From Patescibacteria group bacterium (GTDB lineage: Bacteria; Patescibacteriota; Patescibacteriia; UBA10025; JAHIVO01), in the NCBI GenBank assembly GCA_028718605.1, contig JAQULM010000001.1, positions 603,201 to 651,121 on the forward strand: a DNA stretch of 47,921 bases, given 5' to 3'. The notes beneath the pieces are model-generated. The model was not told the DNA's origin and did not search any database. It saw only the letters and a list, made by a program, of their open reading frames with translations. This document shows, piece after piece, positions 8,938 to 18,387 of the stretch (the stretch's first letter is position 1; every line of letters starts with the position of its first letter). A program made the position numbers and the translations under genes.

Positions 8938-9013
8938 GGGCCAGTAGTTCAGTGGCTAGAACGCCGCATTTGCAATGCGGAGATCAGGGGTTCGATTCCC
9001 CTCTGGTCCACCA
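8938..9013 (+). tRNA. tRNA-Ala (anticodon TGC), CCA encoded; island junction lies immediately 3'
   Basis: Acceptor GGGCCAG/CTGGTCC with the G3:U70 Ala identity pair, anticodon arm CCGCA-TTTGCAA-TGCGG, T arm AGGGG-TTCGATT-CCCCT, then A-CCA. Base composition turns AT-rich right after position 9013. Confidence 0.9.
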
Positions 9014-10773
9014 GAAGTAAATTTTTGCCCCGAACCTCCGACGGGAGTAATCATTTGTCGGAGTATATCTTGGGGCAATTTTAGCTTGATATGGAGACGG
9101 TAAGGGATTTTTTGCCCCTCTTTTTTTCTGCCTGCAACAGTATCTTTCTTCTCAATCAATCTGGAATAAACAATGATCTCTTCAATCAATTCGTGTAATA
9201 GAGTATAAAGTTCCTTTCTGTCCGTAGTTATTCTGCCAAGAGCCGAAGAGTATTTTTTGGAGAATAAATCCAAGCTCTCAATATACCCCTGCGAAAGAGT
9301 ATTTTGAGTTATTTGTAATTCAATCTCTTTCAACTCTTTTTGATAATACTTTTCCTTTTCTATCAAGTCCTTAATGTCTCTCCTTAACTGAACAATATCT
9401 TTAAATCCGGCCTCGTGTTGTTCACTTAACCTCTTTCTTCTTTCTGGAATGCTGTTAATGAGTTTTACTAACTCCTCGCGCTTCGCTTTTAGGTATTTTA
9501 TTTCAGACTTTGTGGATTTTAATTTCTGCTGATGGCTATAAACCGCTATGGGGTTTACCAGTAATGTTTTAGCTTGCTCAACGATATAATCCTCTATATT
9601 CTTTGCTGGCAAAGGAATAACTTTGCAGGGAATCCCGCTTTTACTGTCCAGCTTTCTGCCACATTTGTAAAAATAAGTAAATCTGCCACTACCTTTTTCT
9701 AATTCTTTTCTCTCTCCTGACCAACGCGCCCTGCCTTGCTTATCTTTATCGGGGTTATAGCAACCATCACATCGTAGAAGACCACTTAAAAGATAAACGT
9801 GGTCGTCTTTTGCGCTTTGTCTTGTATGTTTTAATTCGGTTAATAATTTTTGGGCTTGCTCAAAGGTAAAAGGATCAATGATTAAGGGCAGTGCATAGGG
9901 CGATAATTTCCACTCGGAAACTGGCAATTTTTTACCATTTTTAACTTTATTATAATAGTATTTACCGACGTATCTTTCGTCTTGGAGTATCATTCGTATC
10001 CTCTCCGGACGCCAATAATTTATTGGGTTTTTCTTTTTTATCTCCCCAGTTCTTTTTTTATTAATAATCGCCGACGCTTCCGGGGAGGGATAATTGTGTT
10101 TAGTTAAATATTTAGCAATCTGATAAGTAGATTGTTTTTCAACTGTTAGTATACGAAAGATCATTCTTACAACTTCCGCTTCCTTTTCAAAAATTTTATG
10201 GCGTCCTAATTCGTCTTTGAGGAAACCATAACAAGCTGAATTACCCATTGCAATTCCTGATTTAACTGCCTGCTCTCTACCTGCCTGTGTTCTCATTTTT
10301 ATTGTTTCAATTTCCAATTCCGCTATAACGCCGATAATTCCAAGAATTGCCTTTCCGAAAGGTGTTGAGGTATCAAGATTTTCATTGATGGATACGAATT
10401 TGATTTCGTGGTCTTCAAAGAAATCAATAACTTCCAGTAGTATTTTTAGTTTACGAGCGAAACGATCAATTTTATAAACTGCCACTACATCAAATGGTCG
10501 ACTTCCTTCTGGTGCCAACAGAATATCTTCTTTCAACTTGGCAAATGCCGGGCGTTCTTCCAATGGAGTAGTGCCACTTATTCCTTCGTCAACATAGACA
10601 TATTCGTCGCCTGCCAAAGCCATACCACTTTCTAATTTATCCTTTGATTTGATCAAAGCCAACAACGCCTCTTTTTGAAGAGGGATACCGTATCGCTCTG
10701 TTTGTTCTTCAGTGGAAACCCGGACATACAGAGCAACTCTTAATCTTTCATTTGTCTCGTGGCTACTTGTCAT
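8956..10773 (-). CDS. Large serine recombinase (integrase)
   Basis: The N-terminal resolvase domain is LRVALYVRVSTEEQ...YKIDRFARK. It is followed by a recombinase domain, a Cys-rich zinc-ribbon region (CDGCYNP...YFYKCGRK...IPC) and a long coiled-coil-like tail. The last 19 codons (GGPEGNRTPDLRIANAAF*) are read from the antisense of tRNA-Ala. Confidence 0.85.
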   Translation of the reverse strand: MTSSHETNERLRVALYVRVSTEEQTERYGIPLQKEALLALIKSKDKLESGMALAGDEYVYVDEGISGTTPLEERPAFAKLKEDILLAPEGSRPFDVVAVYKIDRFARKLKILLEVIDFFEDHEIKFVSINENLDTSTPFGKAILGIIGVIAELEIETIKMRTQAGREQAVKSGIAMGNSACYGFLKDELGRHKIFEKEAEVVRMIFRILTVEKQSTYQIAKYLTKHNYPSPEASAIINKKRTGEIKKKNPINYWRPERIRMILQDERYVGKYYYNKVKNGKKLPVSEWKLSPYALPLIIDPFTFEQAQKLLTELKHTRQSAKDDHVYLLSGLLRCDGCYNPDKDKQGRARWSGERKELEKGSGRFTYFYKCGRKLDSKSGIPCKVIPLPAKNIEDYIVEQAKTLLVNPIAVYSHQQKLKSTKSEIKYLKAKREELVKLINSIPERRKRLSEQHEAGFKDIVQLRRDIKDLIEKEKYYQKELKEIELQITQNTLSQGYIESLDLFSKKYSSALGRITTDRKELYTLLHELIEEIIVYSRLIEKKDTVAGRKKEGQKIPYRLHIKLKLPQDILRQMITPVGGSGQKFTSGGPEGNRTPDLRIANAAF

Positions 10774-10879
10774 TTGATGTTAATAGAAAGAGAGAAGGGT
10801 AAGAATTAAACAGTATTTATTAAAAGTGAGTACGCGCGATTGAAAAATAAACCTGTATCTGATATAGTAATGTTATCAA

Positions 10880-11101
10880 ATGTTAAGTTATAAGGCAATG
10901 ATAAAAAAGAAAGAAGCCAGCAATATAGCACTACCAGAACTTCTTACCCTTCAAGAAGCGTGTAAAATCTTACGTTGCCACCCTAATACCCTTCGCCAGT
11001 GGGATAAAAAGGGTATTTTTGTTGCTGTTCGTTTTGGCGAACGCAGAGATAGGCGCTACCGTCGAGAAGATATTGAAAATTTTATTAAACATAAAAAATA
11101 A
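10880..11101 (+). CDS. Excisionase/MerR-type helix-turn-helix DNA-binding protein
   Basis: LLTLQEACKILRCHPNTLRQWDKKGIFVAVRFGERRDRRYRREDIENFI matches the excisionase-family HTH pattern. It is divergent from the recombinase. Confidence 0.65.
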   Translation: MLSYKAMIKKKEASNIALPELLTLQEACKILRCHPNTLRQWDKKGIFVAVRFGERRDRRYRREDIENFIKHKK

Positions 11102-11104
11102 ATT

Positions 11105-13615
11105 ATGGAGAAGGAAGCAAAAGCACGGATTAAAATCAACAACCTACTCCAGCAGTCTGGCTGGAAATTCTTTGACGATAAAAATGGCAAGGCAAATATA
11201 AAACTTGAAGGTAATGTTAAAATTGATGAGCTGGGAGATGACTTTGAGAAAGTTAGTACCGGATTTATTGATTATCTCTTGTTAGACAATAAAAATTTTC
11301 CAATCTGTGTTTTAGAGGCAAAGTCGGAAGACAAAGACCCACTTACCGGAAAGGAGCAGGCACGTAGATATGCAAACAGTCAAAATGTTCGCTTTATTAT
11401 ACTTTCTAATGGCAATATCCATTACTTCTGGGATAAAGAGCTCGGAAACCCTACCAGAATTTCAACGTTCCCAACTCTGGAAAGTTTACAGGGCAATAAA
11501 GAATTTACCCCCGATACAAGTAAACTCTCCGGTGAAGAAATAAAAGACAATTACATTGCTTTAACCCAAAATCCTTTTTACGAACAAGACCCTCGTTGGT
11601 CTAATGAGGATAAAAAACAACAGTTTATTTATGATACCGGCCTGCACTTTCTCCGCCATTATCAACTGGATGCTGTAAAGTCATTACAAAAAGCGGTTTC
11701 CGAAGGAAAAAATCGTTTTCTCTTTGAAATGGCGACAGGAACCGGCAAGACCCTGCTGGCCTCCGCGATAATCAAACTCTACCTTAAAACGGGAAATGCA
11801 AGGCGCGTCCTCTTTTTAGTGGATCGCTTGGAGCTTGAAAACCAAGCAGAAAAAGCGTTTAAAAAGTATTTGCAACCGGACTTCCGTGCCGTAATCTTTA
11901 AACTAAATAGAGATGACTGGCGCAAGGCTGAAATCGTGATAACCACAGTCCAGAGCATATCCCACGACAATAAATACCTGAAAATATTCACCCCCACTGA
12001 TTTTGACCTGATTATTTCCGATGAGGCTCATCGTTCCATCTCGGGGAATAGTCGGACGATTTTTGAGTATTTTATAGGCCACAAGCTTGGCTTAACCGCC
12101 ACACCGAAAGATTACCTTAAAAATCTCTCGCAAAAAGATATTGATGAACGCGATCCGCGAGAAATAGAGAGACGCAATCTATTATCAACTTACAAAATAT
12201 TCGGCTGTGAAAGTAACGAGCCAACCTTCCGTTATACGCTTATTGATGGTGCGCGAGACGGTTTCCTTATATTGCCAACGGCCATTGATTGCCGCACGGA
12301 AATAACTACCAAGCTACTATCCGACGAAGGCTATGCCGTACAAACACAAACAGAAGAAGGGGAAGAGGAACGGGTCATTTATAACCAAAGTGATTTTGAG
12401 CGTCGCTTCTTTTCCGAACAGACCAATTTTGAATTTGCCAAAGCATTTATGGAAAATGCCGAGCGTGATCCTATAACAAAAGAAATTGGTAAAACAATAG
12501 TATTCTGTGTTAGTCGAAAACACGCCTCTAAAATTACCCAAATACTGAATGAGTTTGCAATGAAGATGTTCCCTGATAAATATAATTCGGATTTTGCAGT
12601 ACAAATTACTTCCGATATTCCAAACGCACAAAAAATGACCGTAAATTTTTCCAACAATAATCTTAATGGCCATACCAAATTCATTGACGGCTATAAATCC
12701 AGCAAAACAAGGGTTTGTGTGACGGTCGGTATGATGACAACTGGCTATGATTGCCAAGATATATTAAATCTCTGTCTAATGAGGCCTATTTTCTCCCCGA
12801 CTGATTTTGTCCAGATAAAAGGGCGCGGTACGCGAACATTCACTTTTAAACATTCCAAAGGAAACGATCAAATAAGGGAGGGGAAAAAGACATATAAACT
12901 TTTTGATTTCTTCGCTAATTGTGAATACTTTGAAGAAAAATATCCTTACGATCAAGTTATTAAACTTCCGGCCAAGAAAAAAAATGCCGCTGCTGCACCT
13001 CCTAAACCTCCAGTCCAAATTGATAAAACCTCAATCAATATTCCCGATCCCTTGAAAATGATGGAGGTAATGACTTTTGAAGGGAATATAATGCGCGTTG
13101 ACAGAGAACTTTATGTCAGCCGGTTTGAAAATACGGTCAAAGAAGCTGCGAAGAAAGATAAAGAATTTAAGGAAGCAATTAAAAGTGGTGATTATGAACA
13201 GATGGAGCAGTTTATCAAGGAAAAGATACTAAACAAACCGGAGGACTTTTTTACTCTGGAGCGCATTAGGCAGGGTTATAAAACCGACCGCCATATATCG
13301 CTATGGGAGATACTGGATAAGATTTTAGGGCGTATTCCACGCTTCAAATCAAAAGATGAATTAGCACAAGAAGAGTTTGAAAAATATCTGGTCAGCTCAA
13401 AAATTAAACCGGAACTCTACTACGAAGCGCGTGAATTTTTCCGAAATTATCTGATTGACGAGAATTTCCGCGTCGTCATAAATCAGAAACGCTTTAATGA
13501 ATTAGCCGGCGATCCAACAATGACAGAAGCCCTAAAAAAGCTGGGGAAAGAAACCTACTTAACAAAAATCCCGGAATACATAAAAGACAACGTTAGATTA
13601 AACGTCTTCGCTTAA
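11105..13615 (+). CDS. hsdR: Type I restriction enzyme R subunit (EcoEI-like: PD-(D/E)xK nuclease + SF2 ATPase)
   Basis: The HsdR_N-type nuclease region is IDYLLLD...ICVLEAKSED...FIILSNGN. Helicase motifs are MATGTGKT (I), ISDEAHRS (II), LTATP (III) and QIKGRGTR (VI). A long alpha-helical C-terminal extension follows. Confidence 0.8.
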   Translation: MEKEAKARIKINNLLQQSGWKFFDDKNGKANIKLEGNVKIDELGDDFEKVSTGFIDYLLLDNKNFPICVLEAKSEDKDPLTGKEQARRYANSQNVRFIILSNGNIHYFWDKELGNPTRISTFPTLESLQGNKEFTPDTSKLSGEEIKDNYIALTQNPFYEQDPRWSNEDKKQQFIYDTGLHFLRHYQLDAVKSLQKAVSEGKNRFLFEMATGTGKTLLASAIIKLYLKTGNARRVLFLVDRLELENQAEKAFKKYLQPDFRAVIFKLNRDDWRKAEIVITTVQSISHDNKYLKIFTPTDFDLIISDEAHRSISGNSRTIFEYFIGHKLGLTATPKDYLKNLSQKDIDERDPREIERRNLLSTYKIFGCESNEPTFRYTLIDGARDGFLILPTAIDCRTEITTKLLSDEGYAVQTQTEEGEEERVIYNQSDFERRFFSEQTNFEFAKAFMENAERDPITKEIGKTIVFCVSRKHASKITQILNEFAMKMFPDKYNSDFAVQITSDIPNAQKMTVNFSNNNLNGHTKFIDGYKSSKTRVCVTVGMMTTGYDCQDILNLCLMRPIFSPTDFVQIKGRGTRTFTFKHSKGNDQIREGKKTYKLFDFFANCEYFEEKYPYDQVIKLPAKKKNAAAAPPKPPVQIDKTSINIPDPLKMMEVMTFEGNIMRVDRELYVSRFENTVKEAAKKDKEFKEAIKSGDYEQMEQFIKEKILNKPEDFFTLERIRQGYKTDRHISLWEILDKILGRIPRFKSKDELAQEEFEKYLVSSKIKPELYYEAREFFRNYLIDENFRVVINQKRFNELAGDPTMTEALKKLGKETYLTKIPEYIKDNVRLNVFA

Positions 13616-13620
13616 TCATT

Positions 13621-16059
13621 ATGCTAACGGCTGATACAAAAAAGAAAATAGATTACCTCCGCGACGTACTGGTCGGGAAAATTCCTGTACCGTCCCAGCA
13701 GATTGAACAAATCACGCTCGGTCTGATTTATAAATTTATGAGCGATATTGATGAACAGAATGAAGAGCTGGGAGGAAAATCATTTTTTAGTAACGGGTAC
13801 AAACAGTATTCTTGGAAAAAAATAATGGATCGCTCATTAGCTGGCCACGAAAGGGTTTTATTGTATTCGGAAGGATTAGAAAAAATGAGCCGAAATGAAA
13901 AGCTCCCACAGCTATTTCGAGATATTTTTAAAGGCGCGTTTCTCCCTTTTAAAGACCCGGCGGTATTAGATTTGTTCTTGAAGGGTATAAATGAATTTAA
14001 GTATGAGCATAGTGAGGAGCTCGGCAATGCCTTTGAATACCTTTTATCAACGGCCGCCTCCCAAGGAGACGCCGGTCAATTCAGAACCCCACGCCACATT
14101 ATTGATTTTATCGTTGAAGTCGTTGATCCACAGAAAGAAGATAAAATATTAGACCCAGCTTGCGGCACGGCCGGCTTTCTTGTTTCCGCCTATAAGCATA
14201 TTTTGAAAGATAATACTGACAAAAAATCAGGAAGACTGGGATCACTATTAACTTCAAGTGAAAGGAAAAAATTAACCAAGAACATTGTTGGTTATGATAT
14301 ATCTCACGAAATGGTGCGTCTTTCGCTTGTAAATCTGTACCTGCACGGCTTTGCCGAGCCAAACATCTACGAATACGACACTTTGAGTAGTTTGGAACGT
14401 TGGGACGATAATTTTGACTGTCTGCTGGCCAATCCACCCTTTATGACCCCAAGAGGCGGAATAAAACCCCACAACCGCTTTCCTATTCAAGCTAAAAAGT
14501 CAGAAGTATTATTTGTTGATTATATTACAGAACATTTATCTCCCAACGGTAAAGCCGGTATCATTGTACCGGAGGGCATAATTTTTCAATCTGGTAACGC
14601 CTATAAACAACTTCGTAAAATGTTGGTTGAAGATGGGCTCTGGGCAGTGATTTCGTTGCCGCAAGGCGTGTTCAATCCTTATTCTTTAGTTAAAACAAGT
14701 ATTTTGTTTTTTAATAATACAATCGCAAGGCAAACTAAAGAAATCATATTTGTTAAAGTCGAGAATGATGGCTATGATTTAGGCTCACAAAGAAAGCCAA
14801 TTAAAAAAGATGATTTACCGGCAAGATTAGATTTGTTGAAAAGATATAGAAAAGCGGTTCAAAAAAATAAAGCGTTTAGTTTAAGTAAAAACGAATTAAT
14901 ATTTGCAAGCGTCGTTAAGAAAGAAAAAATTGCAGCAAATGGAGATTTCAATCTTTCTGGAGATAGATATAATCAGCCAACTCAAGTATTGAATAGTAAG
15001 TGGGCCTTAGTCGAACTTGAAAAAGTTTGTGGAGTCAAAAAGGGCTCACCAATTACACAAAAAAAGGCTACAATCGGAAATGTCCCAGTTATAGCTGGTG
15101 GACAAAAACCAGCCTATTATCATAATATTGCGAATAGAAATGGGCGGGTGATTACAGTGAGTGCGTCTGGCGCCTACGCCGGTTTTGTGAACTTTTTTGC
15201 TTTACCAATTTTCGCTTCAGACTGCACAACAATTCAAACAAAAGATGAAACGTCAATCTTGACACGCTTTGTTTATTATTTACTTAAAGCAAAGCAAGAA
15301 AACATCTATAAATTACAACAAGGTGGTGGTCAACCTCACGTATATCCAAAAGATTTAGCTAAAATAAAAGTTCCATTACCCCCACTTGAGATTCAAGATA
15401 ATATTGTTGCAGAACTTGATGGTTACCAAAAAATTATTGATGGCGCGAGGCAAGTAATTGATAACTACACTCCACTCATTAAGATTGCTGCCAACTGGGA
15501 TACTATCGAAATAGAAAGTATTTGTACATTGGTTCGTGGCAGCTCACCCCGTCCACAAGGAGATCCTCGTTATTACGGCGGCAAGGTACCACGTTTATTG
15601 ATTTCTGATGTAACCAGGGATGGAATGTATGTTACGCCCACCGCTGACTTCTTAACAGAAGAAGGGGCAAAATTGAGCCGACCAATGAAAAAAGGTGAGG
15701 TTGTTATGGCAGTTAGCGGCAATCCAGGTCTTCCATCTATTTTAAAAGTTGACGCGTGTATTCACGACGGCTTTGTAGGATTCAGGGGATTATCCAAAAA
15801 AGTGTTACCAGAATTTTTATACTTCGTATTTCTATATCAAAAAGTGGTCAATAATTCTCAATCCATAGGTGCAATTTTTAAGAATCTTACCACTGACCAG
15901 ATAAAAAAGTTCAAAATCCCACTTCCACCAATCGAGGTACAGCAGCGGGTTATTGGCAAACTTAAAGAAGAGCAACGGCAAATTGAATCTGCTAAATCAA
16001 TCATCGTTTTATTTGAGCAAAAAATTAAAGATAAAATCTCCGAAGTTTGGGGAGAGTAA
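13621..16059 (+). CDS. Fused type I methyltransferase-specificity polypeptide (HsdM-HsdS fusion)
   Basis: The N-terminal gamma-class N6-adenine MTase has LDPACGTAGFL (motif I) and LANPPF (motif IV). The C-terminal half has two target-recognition-like regions, each followed by an HsdS conserved helix (LPPLEIQDNIVAELDGYQKIID; LPPIEVQQRVIGKLKEEQRQIE). The gene starts 5 nt after the hsdR stop. Confidence 0.75.
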   Translation: MLTADTKKKIDYLRDVLVGKIPVPSQQIEQITLGLIYKFMSDIDEQNEELGGKSFFSNGYKQYSWKKIMDRSLAGHERVLLYSEGLEKMSRNEKLPQLFRDIFKGAFLPFKDPAVLDLFLKGINEFKYEHSEELGNAFEYLLSTAASQGDAGQFRTPRHIIDFIVEVVDPQKEDKILDPACGTAGFLVSAYKHILKDNTDKKSGRLGSLLTSSERKKLTKNIVGYDISHEMVRLSLVNLYLHGFAEPNIYEYDTLSSLERWDDNFDCLLANPPFMTPRGGIKPHNRFPIQAKKSEVLFVDYITEHLSPNGKAGIIVPEGIIFQSGNAYKQLRKMLVEDGLWAVISLPQGVFNPYSLVKTSILFFNNTIARQTKEIIFVKVENDGYDLGSQRKPIKKDDLPARLDLLKRYRKAVQKNKAFSLSKNELIFASVVKKEKIAANGDFNLSGDRYNQPTQVLNSKWALVELEKVCGVKKGSPITQKKATIGNVPVIAGGQKPAYYHNIANRNGRVITVSASGAYAGFVNFFALPIFASDCTTIQTKDETSILTRFVYYLLKAKQENIYKLQQGGGQPHVYPKDLAKIKVPLPPLEIQDNIVAELDGYQKIIDGARQVIDNYTPLIKIAANWDTIEIESICTLVRGSSPRPQGDPRYYGGKVPRLLISDVTRDGMYVTPTADFLTEEGAKLSRPMKKGEVVMAVSGNPGLPSILKVDACIHDGFVGFRGLSKKVLPEFLYFVFLYQKVVNNSQSIGAIFKNLTTDQIKKFKIPLPPIEVQQRVIGKLKEEQRQIESAKSIIVLFEQKIKDKISEVWGE

Positions 16060-16105
16060 AATTAGTAGTAATGTTAATAATTTTGATATAATTAACTTAT
16101 CTGGT

Positions 16106-17524
16106 ATGAAAAAAACTTCTACAAAACCAAATTATGATAAATGGCCAAGACAAAAAGTTGTAATAAACGATCTCTTTCTTGACCCAGAAAATATTCGTTT
16201 AGGTGTTGAAGTCCAATCTTCACAGCAAGAAGCGCTAATAAATGATTTGTTTGCTAACGAAAATGCTATGCAGGTTTTAGAGAGCATAGCTACAAATGGA
16301 TTTTTTCCGGATGAAATACCAGTGGTCATAAAAGAAGATAATAAAATTGTTGTAATTGATGGGAACCGTAGAATTGCGGCTTTAAAGGCGTTAGCCCGGC
16401 CAGAGATTGTCCCGTCAAAAGAAACAAATATAAAACAGATACTCAAAACCACCAGCCCTCTAATTAAAAATATAGAAATTGTTGTCGCCCCAAACCGTAA
16501 TTCTGTCAGACATTTTTTAGCGAGTAAGCACACCCAGAACACAAAAAGGCCGTGGCGACCTCTTCGGCAGGCATATTTTTATAAAGCAGAGCTTGAACGA
16601 GGTAAAACTGTTCAGGATTTACGAAATGATTATCCCACCGTTGATATTGGCAAATTTCTGCGAATGATTAACATTCACAGAATTGCAAAATCAATTAAAT
16701 ACGATAATGACCAAATAACCAAAAAAGTTCATAACGAACGCACCTTCCCGGTTTCTACACTTGAAAGATTGTACGAGGATAAATATGTCAGGGAGTTTTT
16801 AGGATTTGAATTTGATGGTGATGGAGATGTCCAAGTTAAAGTAGAAAAAAATGAATTTGAAAAAGGATTTAAGAGAGTCGTTCAAGACATAGTTGAAAAA
16901 GTGATTGACACTCGTGAGTTAAATACCGAAAAAAATAGAAAAGAATATCTTGCTAAATTTTCTGCTTCAGACATTCCAAGCAAAACGAAGATTAGCAAGA
17001 CATTAACAAGTAAAGATTTTACAGAAATTCTTCCTGTTCTTACTAAAAAAAGAACAAAACTTGCGCCCAAAGACATACTTTTTACTTTGAAATACCCGGG
17101 CGTGAGAAGAATGTTAATGGAACTTCAAAATATTGATTATCATAAATTTCCAAACGCCGCACACGACTTATTAAGAAGCTTCCTTGAATGTGCACTAAAA
17201 GCATATTTTGATCAAAACGGAAATACAATCAAGCCAACAAAGGGTAAAAATTATGTTTTTTTGGACGACGTATTGAAAGCATTCAAAAATGAAATGGATT
17301 TAGCAAAAAATACTGAACTATCCCAAGTAGCACAAAAAATAATCAGCGATACGACAATGAAATCATACTCGACACAATTTCTCAATGCAACAAATCACAA
17401 CCCAAGTGTTTTTGCAGTAGACAAAGATGTTGAGGCCGCGTGGGACACAATGGAAAAATTGTTACGTCACATTCTTAATCCTGTTAAAAAAAATGATGAC
17501 AATAAATCACAAAAGAAACCATAA
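16106..17524 (+). CDS. ParB/Srx-like N-terminal domain protein with an uncharacterised helical C-terminal domain
   Basis: INDLFLDPENIR...VVIDGNRRIAALKAL is a ParB-like nuclease/NTPase-fold signature. The C-terminus (AAHDLLRSFLECALKAYF...FLNATNHNPSVF...AAWDTMEKLLRHIL) is helical and resembles DUF4145/HEPN-type layouts, though without a canonical R-x4-6-H. I moved the start to ATG 16106 (MKKTSTKPNY); the ORF-track start 15953 lies inside the hsdMS gene. Confidence 0.6.
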   Translation: MKKTSTKPNYDKWPRQKVVINDLFLDPENIRLGVEVQSSQQEALINDLFANENAMQVLESIATNGFFPDEIPVVIKEDNKIVVIDGNRRIAALKALARPEIVPSKETNIKQILKTTSPLIKNIEIVVAPNRNSVRHFLASKHTQNTKRPWRPLRQAYFYKAELERGKTVQDLRNDYPTVDIGKFLRMINIHRIAKSIKYDNDQITKKVHNERTFPVSTLERLYEDKYVREFLGFEFDGDGDVQVKVEKNEFEKGFKRVVQDIVEKVIDTRELNTEKNRKEYLAKFSASDIPSKTKISKTLTSKDFTEILPVLTKKRTKLAPKDILFTLKYPGVRRMLMELQNIDYHKFPNAAHDLLRSFLECALKAYFDQNGNTIKPTKGKNYVFLDDVLKAFKNEMDLAKNTELSQVAQKIISDTTMKSYSTQFLNATNHNPSVFAVDKDVEAAWDTMEKLLRHILNPVKKNDDNKSQKKP

Positions 17525-18341
17525 ATACCATTACAGCCCACTTCGGTATCCCGGCGGTAAAACATTTTTGTTTCCTCTTTTTGATAAGGTAATCAAAAAA
17601 TACGGACTTAAAAATGTTGTTTATATTGAACCTTTCGCCGGCGGTGCTGGCGCGGCCTTGGCCTTACTTTTTTTGGAAAAAGTAGACAGAATCGTTATTA
17701 ACGATCTTGATAAAGCAATATATTCGTTCTGGAAATCAGCTATTTTTAATTCCGATAAATTTATTAAGAAAATATACTCCACACCAATAACGATTGAAGA
17801 ATGGCGGAAACAAAAAGCTATTTACAGTGATATAAAATCAAGCGAGTTTAATTTAGGATTTGCAACTTTTTATCTTAATAGGACAAATATGTCCGGCATT
17901 TTAAATGGCGGTTTGATAGGGGGCATTAAACAGAAAGGTAAATATAAGATAAACGCCAGATTCAATAAAGATAGCCTTGCTGAAAAAATTCAACAACTAT
18001 CATTGTATAAAAATAGAATTTCAATTTTTAACAAGGATGGCGTTAAGCTAATACACAAATATTTGAACAAAGAAAACACTTTTATTTATCTTGATCCGCC
18101 ATATTATGAAAAAGGTGCGGCACTGTATTTAAACCACTTTAAAAAAGCAGATCACGAAACGTTGGCCGAGCAATTAAATAGAAACGCAGACGCCTTTTGG
18201 CTCTTGACCTATGATAATAAAAAAGAGATAAAATCACTTTATGAAGATAGAAAAATTGTTAATTTCTCACTCAACTATAATGCTTACGAATTACGTAGAG
18301 GGAGAGAAATAATGATTTTATCTGACGCGCTAACAATTTAA
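17493..18341 (+). CDS. D12-class (Dam-like) N6-adenine DNA methyltransferase
   Basis: Motifs are RYPGGK, EPFAGGAGAAL (FxGxG) and YLDPPYY (DPPY). The likely start ATGATG at 17493 overlaps the 3' end of the ParB-like gene by about 30 nt. The ORF-track start 17427 is probably too early. Confidence 0.8.
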   Translation: MMTINHKRNHKYHYSPLRYPGGKTFLFPLFDKVIKKYGLKNVVYIEPFAGGAGAALALLFLEKVDRIVINDLDKAIYSFWKSAIFNSDKFIKKIYSTPITIEEWRKQKAIYSDIKSSEFNLGFATFYLNRTNMSGILNGGLIGGIKQKGKYKINARFNKDSLAEKIQQLSLYKNRISIFNKDGVKLIHKYLNKENTFIYLDPPYYEKGAALYLNHFKKADHETLAEQLNRNADAFWLLTYDNKKEIKSLYEDRKIVNFSLNYNAYELRRGREIMILSDALTI

Positions 18342-18387
18342 TCACAAAACTTTTCAAAATAAACTAAAAAAGGTTATTATATAGACA

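Follow-up and report, generated by a model that had tools for sequence, protein, structure and literature searches.

Do the two genes that follow a type I restriction operon in a Patescibacteria genome form a defence system of their own, and if so, which one? The genes lie in a 47,921-nt stretch of contig JAQULM010000001.1 from a Patescibacteria group bacterium (the window, meaning the whole stretch of DNA that was analysed, in which all positions without a locus label are given; labels L001 to L097 denote the related loci examined). They are here called gene A, the presumed effector, and gene B, an adenine methyltransferase. A preliminary description had proposed that the pair is a novel defence module linked to methylation, in which an effector is combined with self-marking, and that it is an appendage of the type I operon. 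The module itself has a match in PD-lambda-5 of Vassallo et al. (2022), a known two-gene anti-phage system of which genes A and B are almost certainly a Patescibacteria member. The novelty falls away, because PD-lambda-5 is a named, experimentally validated system with PADLOC models. The best explanation of the locus overall, to which we assign a probability of about 0.7, is an autonomous mobile PD-lambda-5 cassette with a restriction-like mechanism.

Identity and joint inheritance of genes A and B

Gene A (16106..17524, + strand) encodes a 472-aa protein with a predicted ParB/Srx-fold region followed by a HEPN-like region, and gene B (17493..18341, + strand) encodes a 282-aa D12-class N6-adenine DNA methyltransferase. 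The ATG of gene A at 16106 is separated by 46 nt from the stop codon of the upstream hsdMS gene (16057-16059). The gene A stop at 17522-17524 lies beyond the gene B ATG at 17493, which gives an overlap of 32 nt that agrees with the public gene call. Protein A carries the motifs DGNRR (residues 85-89), HDLLRSFLEC (353-362) and LNATNHNP (426-433), and protein B carries the D12 motifs YPGGK (19-23), FAGGAG (48-53) and DPPY (201-204). The coordinates and motifs given in the preliminary description, with an overlap of about 30 nt, were borne out. A longer open reading frame (ORF) for gene A, starting with TTG at 15953, was rejected because the homologues start at the MKKT position and an identical public protein (L086) is 472 aa long.

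PD-lambda-5 was found by functional selection in E. coli ECOR7 as the proteins RCQ13837.1 and RCQ13838.1, carried on a prophage, and it is annotated as 'ParB/HEPN, methyltransferase' (Vassallo et al., 2022; PMC9519451). The HHpred table of the same authors gives probabilities of 96.4% for ParBc, 35.6% for DUF4145 and 99.9% for MethyltransfD12. The system protects against phages when cloned alone, and of ten phages only one was unaffected in plating and plaque size (PMC9519451). It likewise consists of two adjacent genes on the same strand, the first encoding a protein of about 470-530 aa with a ParB N-terminal domain and a weak DUF4145/HEPN-like region, the second a D12 adenine methyltransferase. 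The domain layout in the window is identical to that in the authors' table. Both are carried by mobile elements, a prophage in E. coli and a recombinase island in the window. The window differs in its host, which belongs to the Patescibacteria (candidate phyla radiation, CPR), in its tRNA-Ala serine-recombinase carrier and in the type I system and LOOT RNA that share the island. The PilB of the host shows 67% identity to proteins of Patescibacteria metagenome-assembled genomes.

Profile matches, architecture and synteny together place the pair in PD-lambda-5, an assignment made through PADLOC profile models. Protein A matches 25 PD-Lambda-5_A models. The best match has an E value (expectation value) of 3.4e-56 (PDLC03998), and a full-length match with an E value of 1.9e-43 (PDLC04017) aligns residues 9-436 with profile positions 5-443 of 473. 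Protein B matches PD-Lambda-5_B with an E value of 6.1e-108, residues 13-281 covering profile positions 4-274 of 291, and the two genes are adjacent on one strand, as in PD-lambda-5. Protein A also matches PHROG 9592. Most of its 322 close homologues are metagenomic proteins without a name, 55-93% identical to it, from groups that include Patescibacteria, Zixibacteria and Firestonebacteria, and NCBI names homologues 'ParB/Srx family N-terminal domain-containing protein'. At E values of 1e-30 or below the family comprises 423 clusters (50% identity), and a family of this size places the predicted ORF far beyond chance.

The neighbourhood census suggested in the preliminary description was made on 80 related loci from contigs of one genome per species, chosen as the best from a set of 514 or more matching stretches found in 185,579 species genomes. 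In 78 of these 80 loci, which span many phyla, gene A is directly followed by a homologue of gene B in the same orientation. The nearest genes are restriction-modification and mobile-element genes. One of the two exceptions (L024) is a contig end. In the other (L042, 9911-12425), a DDE_3 (IS630-like) transposase truncates gene A just past the position that corresponds to residue 367, and gene B is gone. L042 is a natural disruption of the effector in which the methylase is missing, and it is the only complete locus without gene B. Among 76 A-B junctions, 52 are overlaps (42 of them of 4 nt) and 22 are gaps of 0-25 nt. The pairwise distances of A and of B are correlated (r = 0.956, a value reached by 0 of 999 permutations), a correlation that partly reflects a shared history of horizontal transfer. 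The pair is inherited as a unit, as its arrangement across the loci shows, and its two genes are probably translationally coupled.

A separate observation concerns six actinobacterial loci (L018, L019, L020, L023, L027 and L030; about 12380-13460, + strand), where six neighbouring ORFs match PD-Lambda-5_A at E values of about 1e-20. The candidates for these matches are ORFs of about 355 aa directly 3' of the methylase, the one in L018 being without a Pfam match. When the matching ORFs are assigned by position, these loci appear to hold a three-gene variant of the order A-B-A'.

Predicted domains and proposed mode of action

The N-terminal half of protein A is predicted to adopt a ParB/Srx fold. 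In an AlphaFold2 model of the whole protein (predicted local distance difference test, pLDDT, 79), Foldseek matches this half to ParB-CDP (6sdk), ParB-CTPgammaS (7bnr), Noc (7ol9) and Spo0J (1vz0) with a probability of 1.0 and an E value of 1e-4, placing the NTP-binding (nucleoside triphosphate-binding) type domain at residues of about 15-145 (16148..16540, + strand). The ParB/Srx N-terminus of the preliminary description is upheld by this match, and the HHpred result of Vassallo et al. agrees. The best structural matches of this half are thus ParB/Spo0J, Noc and KorB proteins, in which a G-x-R-R patch likewise sits at a helix start after a β-strand; the corresponding [E/D]-G-N-R-R motif of protein A is encoded at 16358-16372 (+ strand, residues 85-89). 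The C-terminal dimerisation domain of those proteins is replaced in protein A by the HEPN-like domain, and the middle region is helical and resembles a helix-turn-helix (HTH) in the AlphaFold2 and Foldseek analysis. Sequence profiles are less informative: Pfam returns no ParBc match and only sub-threshold matches to ELP3_N and G6PD_C, which we take as noise, and a PDB sequence search with the family profile gave nothing useful (best E value 0.15).

Conservation was mapped on 133 members of the protein A family, with a median identity of 30% to the window protein. Seven residues are conserved in all of them (G86, N87, R88, R89, N29, R31 and H142). Other conserved residues of the N-terminal domain are D26 (in D26-x2-N29-x-R31), [E/D]85 and W150; R270 is conserved in the middle region. 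The box III equivalent of protein A is K-H-T-Q.

The C-terminal helical domain (residues 322-462; 17069..17491, + strand), defined by a domain model and Foldseek, reaches a pLDDT of 88 and a predicted template modelling score (pTM) of 0.85 when modelled alone. Its top Foldseek matches are nearly all HEPN proteins (HepT toxins, 4nqf, 1wol, Csm6 and sacsin), but with E values of 0.37-1, probabilities of at most 0.75 and TM scores of at most 0.59, so that a HEPN-like fold is consistent with the model and unproven. The preliminary description had compared this domain to the DUF4145/HEPN modules of restriction loci and had noted that it lacks R-x4-6-H. The absence of that motif stands and PD-lambda-5 is annotated in the same way, whereas the fold matches remain below significance. 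The conserved residues are E339, R357, E361, H431 and N432. H431 is 98% conserved and occupies the position of the HEPN histidine, and positions -5 and -4 are L426 and N427, not arginine. R357, the only conserved arginine of the domain, lies 74 residues N-terminal to H431 on the first long helix of the bundle. The alignment thus points to a conserved polar site that differs from the canonical HEPN site.

Protein B matches Pfam PF02086 (MethyltransfD12) with 75 bits against a cut-off of 22, and the adenine methyltransferase structure 7m6b in PDB with an E value of 8e-18. With the NCBIfam dam model TIGR00571 it scores 61.8 bits against a cut-off of 114.85; it was therefore rejected as a Dam (GATC) enzyme proper, and is a D12-class enzyme nonetheless. 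Mrr restricts DNA that carries foreign adenine or cytosine methylation. The cloning host of PD-lambda-5 was MG1655 with the mrr region deleted, and this deletion was required. According to the paper, protein B methylates host DNA in E. coli (PMC9519451), and from the need for the deletion we infer that it does so at a non-Dam site.

Methylases of this kind were also met in another setting. When the pair of a Kosakonia conjugative plasmid was compared by blastn with 5,426 E. coli genomes, only related methylases with other partners were matched. On two E. coli chromosomes (L084, 2930-5579; L085, 2924-5636), the partner of such a D12 methylase is annotated as 'ATP-dependent nuclease' or 'AAA family ATPase' in place of a ParB-like protein, the settings being an integrative conjugative element and a site beside an integrase. 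Effectors of different kinds seem to be paired with one methylase lineage.

A restriction-like logic, in which the methylase protects and protein A attacks unmethylated DNA, is mildly favoured. Protein B, an alpha-class D12 m6A methyltransferase, would methylate a short motif on resident DNA and so mark self. Protein A would be the effector: its ParB/Srx domain may bind nucleotide through the invariant GNRR arginine patch and act as an NTP-regulated DNA-engaging or nicking module, its central helical region may contact DNA, and its HEPN-like bundle (E339, R357, E361, H431) would supply a second catalytic or regulatory activity. Incoming unmethylated DNA would be attacked and methylated host DNA spared. 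In GmrSD, Osa and a B. cereus ParB-methylase, the ParB/Srx domain is reported to be a largely nonspecific DNase or nickase linked to NTPase activity (PMC5512222). With its GNRR patch and ParB-CTPase-like fold, the N-terminal half of protein A is most economically read as an NTP-regulated module that engages or nicks DNA.

Two groups of known systems place this proposal. In classical type II restriction-modification systems, a methyltransferase is likewise tightly linked to and co-inherited with a putative nuclease, the genes are mobile and occur among other restriction systems, and the host chromosome is methylated, as the mrr-deleted cloning host implies for PD-lambda-5. The type II enzymes have a recognised nuclease fold, whereas protein A combines a ParB/Srx NTP-binding fold with a HEPN-like bundle; in addition, most of them do not restrict T-even phages and T7, as E. 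coli PD-lambda-5 does. The ParB/Srx proteins of the DUF262 type, GmrSD/BrxU and SspE, likewise carry an N-terminal domain with a D-G-x-x-R type motif, a domain believed to couple NTP binding or hydrolysis to a C-terminal effector, and PD-T4-2A combines DUF262 with HEPN. GmrSD/BrxU and SspE have no paired D12 methylase, GmrSD/BrxU target modified DNA, and the effector domain is the HNH-type DUF1524 in place of the HEPN-like bundle of protein A. The fold of protein A is closer to true ParB CTPases than to DUF262.

Several observations weigh against a restriction-like PD-lambda-5 cassette. Pfam recognises no restriction-nuclease fold in protein A (no PD-(D/E)XK, HNH, GIY-YIG or PLD domain), the HEPN assignment of its C-terminus is statistically weak, and the canonical R-x4-6-H motif was not found in the alignment of 133 members. 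The window clade is only about 25-30% identical to the proteobacterial members, and the correlated distances of A and B do not necessarily mean physical interaction. Finally, the protection given by the E. coli system is strongest against T-even phages, and the modified DNA of these phages is resistant to most classical restriction enzymes (PMC9519451); this protection fits a second, abortive arm or a cytosine-free motif better than a plain type II system.

The C-terminal domain of protein A may be a second nuclease, as an abortive RNase arm, or a regulatory module, and its non-canonical site leaves room for both. The first of these leads to a dual system of restriction and abortive infection, in which the ParB domain and the methylase discriminate self from non-self and a HEPN-like RNase closes down the infected cell if restriction does not succeed. 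This explanation departs from the favoured one only in the role of the C-terminal domain, and was suggested for PD-lambda-5 by Vassallo et al. themselves; a later review lists PD-lambda-5 among the HEPN-containing systems. The nearest folds of the domain, HEPN RNase toxins and Csm6, and its strongly conserved polar site agree with it, as does the protection that the E. coli system gives against T-even phages and T7 (Vassallo et al., 2022). Fusions of a ParB nuclease-fold domain with HEPN in restriction-modification contexts (Saro_3948 type), and HEPN genes in operons of ParB and a methylase (MAE_28990 family), were catalogued by Anantharaman et al. (2013). Their HEPN domains are listed as 'mostly active', whereas the protein A family is without the arginine of R-x4-6-H. 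The missing catalytic motif, with L426 and N427 preceding H431, and a HEPN fold match that is not significant (E value of 0.37 or more) make the dual system unlikely in our estimate. A search of the literature found no mechanistic study of PD-lambda-5, later papers repeating the reading of the original authors.

The mobile island and the type I neighbour

An island from about 9.0 to 20.5 kb, with a GC content of 0.375 against 0.53 in the flanks, surrounds the pair; its right boundary was set by GC content alone. At its left edge lies a tRNA-Ala gene (8938-9013, + strand), followed by a large serine recombinase gene (8956..10773, - strand; Pfam Resolvase, Recombinase and Zn_ribbon_recom) whose reading frame runs 58 nt into the tRNA gene, so that the codons for its final residues are part of the tRNA sequence. 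An overlap of this kind, 12 nt long, is also found in a related island (L092). Next come a gene for a small HTH_17/MerR-type DNA-binding protein, excisionase-like (10880..11101, + strand; Pfam HTH_17, E value 5.7e-12), hsdR (11105-13615, + strand; Pfam ResIII and HSDR_N, PADLOC REase_I), a fused hsdM-hsdS gene (13621-16059, + strand; Pfam N6_Mtase and two Methylase_S domains, PADLOC MTase_I and Specificity_I), the A-B pair and the LOOT RNA. The HsdM-HsdS fusion is 812 aa long, with N6_Mtase at residues 132-455 and target-recognition domains at about 458-607 and 621-802; HsdR matches an EcoAI-family model only below the cut-off. On the right side, a guessed tRNA 3' pattern had no match as an attachment site, and no convincing flanking direct repeat was found. 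Such a repeat is not expected for serine recombinases. The arrangement shows that the A-B pair is cargo of a serine-recombinase island inserted at tRNA-Ala.

Between 18582 and 19986, 3' of the LOOT RNA, the island also holds three small ORFs for predicted membrane-like proteins (84, 75 and 81 aa) and a 143-aa ORF, none with a significant Pfam or PHROG match.

The company of the pair changes among its closest relatives, tabulated as those with a protein A 75-82% identical to that of the window and those of the Kaiserbacteria type. Tyrosine integrases flank the pair on both sides in L087, and a HARE-HTH gene lies beside it in L090. The neighbours are a MutH-like nuclease with an N6_N4 methylase, a serine recombinase and HTH_17 in L092, and an AlwI-type endonuclease with an N6_N4 methylase in L094. 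In the Kaiserbacteria-type loci L096, L097 and L001, a serine recombinase adjoins the pair and no other restriction or defence gene is annotated nearby. Pair and recombinase together span less than 4 kb (7764-11567 in L096, 2967-6629 in L001, and L097), with a tRNA gene just 5' in L096 and L097, and these three loci may represent a very small mobile defence island. As an observation apart, in two loci whose protein A is 81-82% identical to that of the window (L090, 333-1076; L092, 7211-7954), gene A is directly preceded, in the same orientation, by a HARE-HTH gene encoding 247 aa, which is absent from the window.

So close a tie to mobile elements raises the question of whether the cassette, like many restriction-modification pairs, is an addiction module, the loss of which would expose an unmethylated chromosome to residual protein A and so stabilise the island, with phage defence as a side effect. 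The pair is nearly always on mobile elements, with serine recombinases, tyrosine integrases, TrwC relaxases and HTH_17 genes nearby. In the Kaiserbacteria-type loci it sits directly beside a large serine recombinase without other annotated defence genes, and on the Kosakonia conjugative plasmid it adjoins a resolvase, in the order resolvase-A-methylase. The E. coli homologue cloned alone protects against phages (Vassallo et al., 2022), and addiction is compatible with defence, so that the proposal shifts the emphasis more than it offers a true alternative. As the explanation of the cassette in place of defence, we judge it distinctly improbable.

A closer relation to the type I genes had also been proposed, the four genes forming one operon in which the pair would serve as a backup or a sensor for the type I enzyme. 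The genes do share a strand and are separated by short gaps (5 nt between hsdR and hsdMS, 46 nt between hsdMS and gene A), no terminator-like site was found between hsdMS and gene A in a generic scan whose matches were not above shuffles, and the strongest promoter-like site of the region in the promoter scan lies upstream, at 10840-10868, 5' of the HTH_17 gene. Type I genes adjoin the pair in L007, L015, L016 and L041. These are, however, the only 4 of the 80 loci with type I genes within 10 kb, and their order and side differ; the other 76 have none. A crude ORF-based census of the 139 nearest neighbours in 76 loci includes only 3 HsdM-type genes, and is dominated by TrwC relaxases, DNA methylases of other classes, HTH_17, ResIII, Eco57I-type, Schlafen-AlbA and integrase genes, the HTH_17 genes recurring in related islands. 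The 75-82% identical relatives adjoin type II systems or none, and the E. coli pair functions alone.

The pair also seems to bring its own promoter. An extended -10-like element, TGATATAAT (16084..16092, + strand), is found 13 nt 5' of the gene A ATG, and five close relatives with differing upstream genes, including the GC-rich L096, carry a TATAAT or TAAAAT box 6-27 nt 5' of the ATG. A generic -35/-10 promoter and terminator scan did not flag TGATATAAT, and its matches were not above shuffles; the putative cassette promoter comes from the comparison across loci. Read-through from the type I genes into the pair is possible. Because type I genes are rare nearby, relatives occur in other contexts and the box is present regardless of the upstream gene, the comparison of loci shows the A-B pair to be an autonomous mobile cassette, probably with its own promoter, that shares islands with interchangeable restriction systems, and not an appendage or sensor of the type I enzyme. 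The type I system is separate cargo of the island, and an operon-wide function of the four genes is very unlikely.

Phage genomes offer little room for another proposal of the preliminary description, a split ParB-methylase with which a phage or plasmid methylates its own DNA to escape host restriction. ParB-methylase fusions exist, one with a nicking ParB domain (PMC5512222), and full-length relatives of protein A occur in Marinobacter phage AS1 and a few viral contigs. Such relatives are rare, with 1 among 50,697 phage records and about 12 among 2.9 million viral contigs, against the at least 514 stretches in species genomes. The AS1 pair, complete with its methylase, adjoins an integrase like prophage cargo, and the phenotype shown by experiment is host defence (Vassallo et al., 2022). 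P2-like coliphages share only the ParB N-domain with protein A in a tblastn search of phages. In Escherichia phage vB_EcoM-12474III (L081, 3974-7010), the hotspot beside portal gene Q holds genes for a ParB N-domain protein of 373 aa and an unknown protein of 331 aa, together with an oppositely oriented DNA methyltransferase gene; the layout in these P2-like phages differs from PD-lambda-5. The distribution in phages and plasmids fits defence cargo of temperate elements and not a phage counter-defence gene, a role that we regard as scarcely tenable.

A partition or KorB-like regulator with an orphan methylase for epigenetic regulation, which the preliminary description had named as the outcome that would speak against defence and which the ParB CTPase-type fold, the HTH-like middle region and the NCBI naming would suit, can be dismissed as having next to no likelihood, since protein A scores 18.1 bits against a cut-off of 58.45 with the partition ParB model TIGR00180 (parB_part, its sole and sub-threshold NCBIfam match), ParA is absent both from the commonest families in the set of 139 nearest neighbours and from the flanks of the pair in the window, a further conserved HEPN-like domain is present, and defence has been demonstrated within the family.

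The LOOT RNA and the meaning of the cassette

The last element of the island order is a LOOT RNA (Rfam RF03000; 18391..18516, + strand), which begins 50 nt 3' of gene B, is followed by a T-run and has a promoter-like site 5' of it in the promoter scan (18353-18380). The match in the window is full-length, with 72.4 bits against a gathering score of 46.4 and an E value of 2.5e-12. LOOT was found in 4 of the 19 loci scanned, namely the window and 3 of 18 related loci: L087 (12314-12428, + strand), L092 (4262-4380, - strand) and L017 (9494-9610, + strand). The copies lie near the A-B pair and vary in position and orientation, which suggests that LOOT is linked to Patescibacteria mobile islands rather than to the pair itself. 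The four copies have too few fixed bases in common to yield a pattern that could be told apart from chance matches in 596 Gb. No published function for the RNA was found in the literature, and the text of its discovery paper does not describe the RNA.

A bolder extension of the favoured explanation combines these elements. Protein A would be a new class of methylation-sensitive restriction effector, joining a ParB-type nucleotide-gated domain that engages DNA to a non-canonical HEPN-like catalytic site, formed by R357 and H431 on different helices in place of an R-x4-6-H motif. In Patescibacteria, minimal serine-recombinase islands that target tRNA genes, some of them with the orphan LOOT RNA, would have the cassette as their main cargo. 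LOOT would then gain a functional setting for the first time, as an RNA tied to mobile islands or to defence. We put this forward as a tentative possibility that is more doubtful than not.

As a discovery the locus counts for little, since current defence-finding software would call it automatically. The conservation map (GNRR, H142, R357 and H431) provides concrete targets for mutagenesis. The recurrence of LOOT in the islands is a small new lead. For the family, the finding means that a system validated in E. coli has a highly conserved clade, with 60-93% identity across several uncultured phyla, that moves among Patescibacteria and these other phyla on small recombinase islands, in some of which the pair stands beside the recombinase without any other defence gene nearby.

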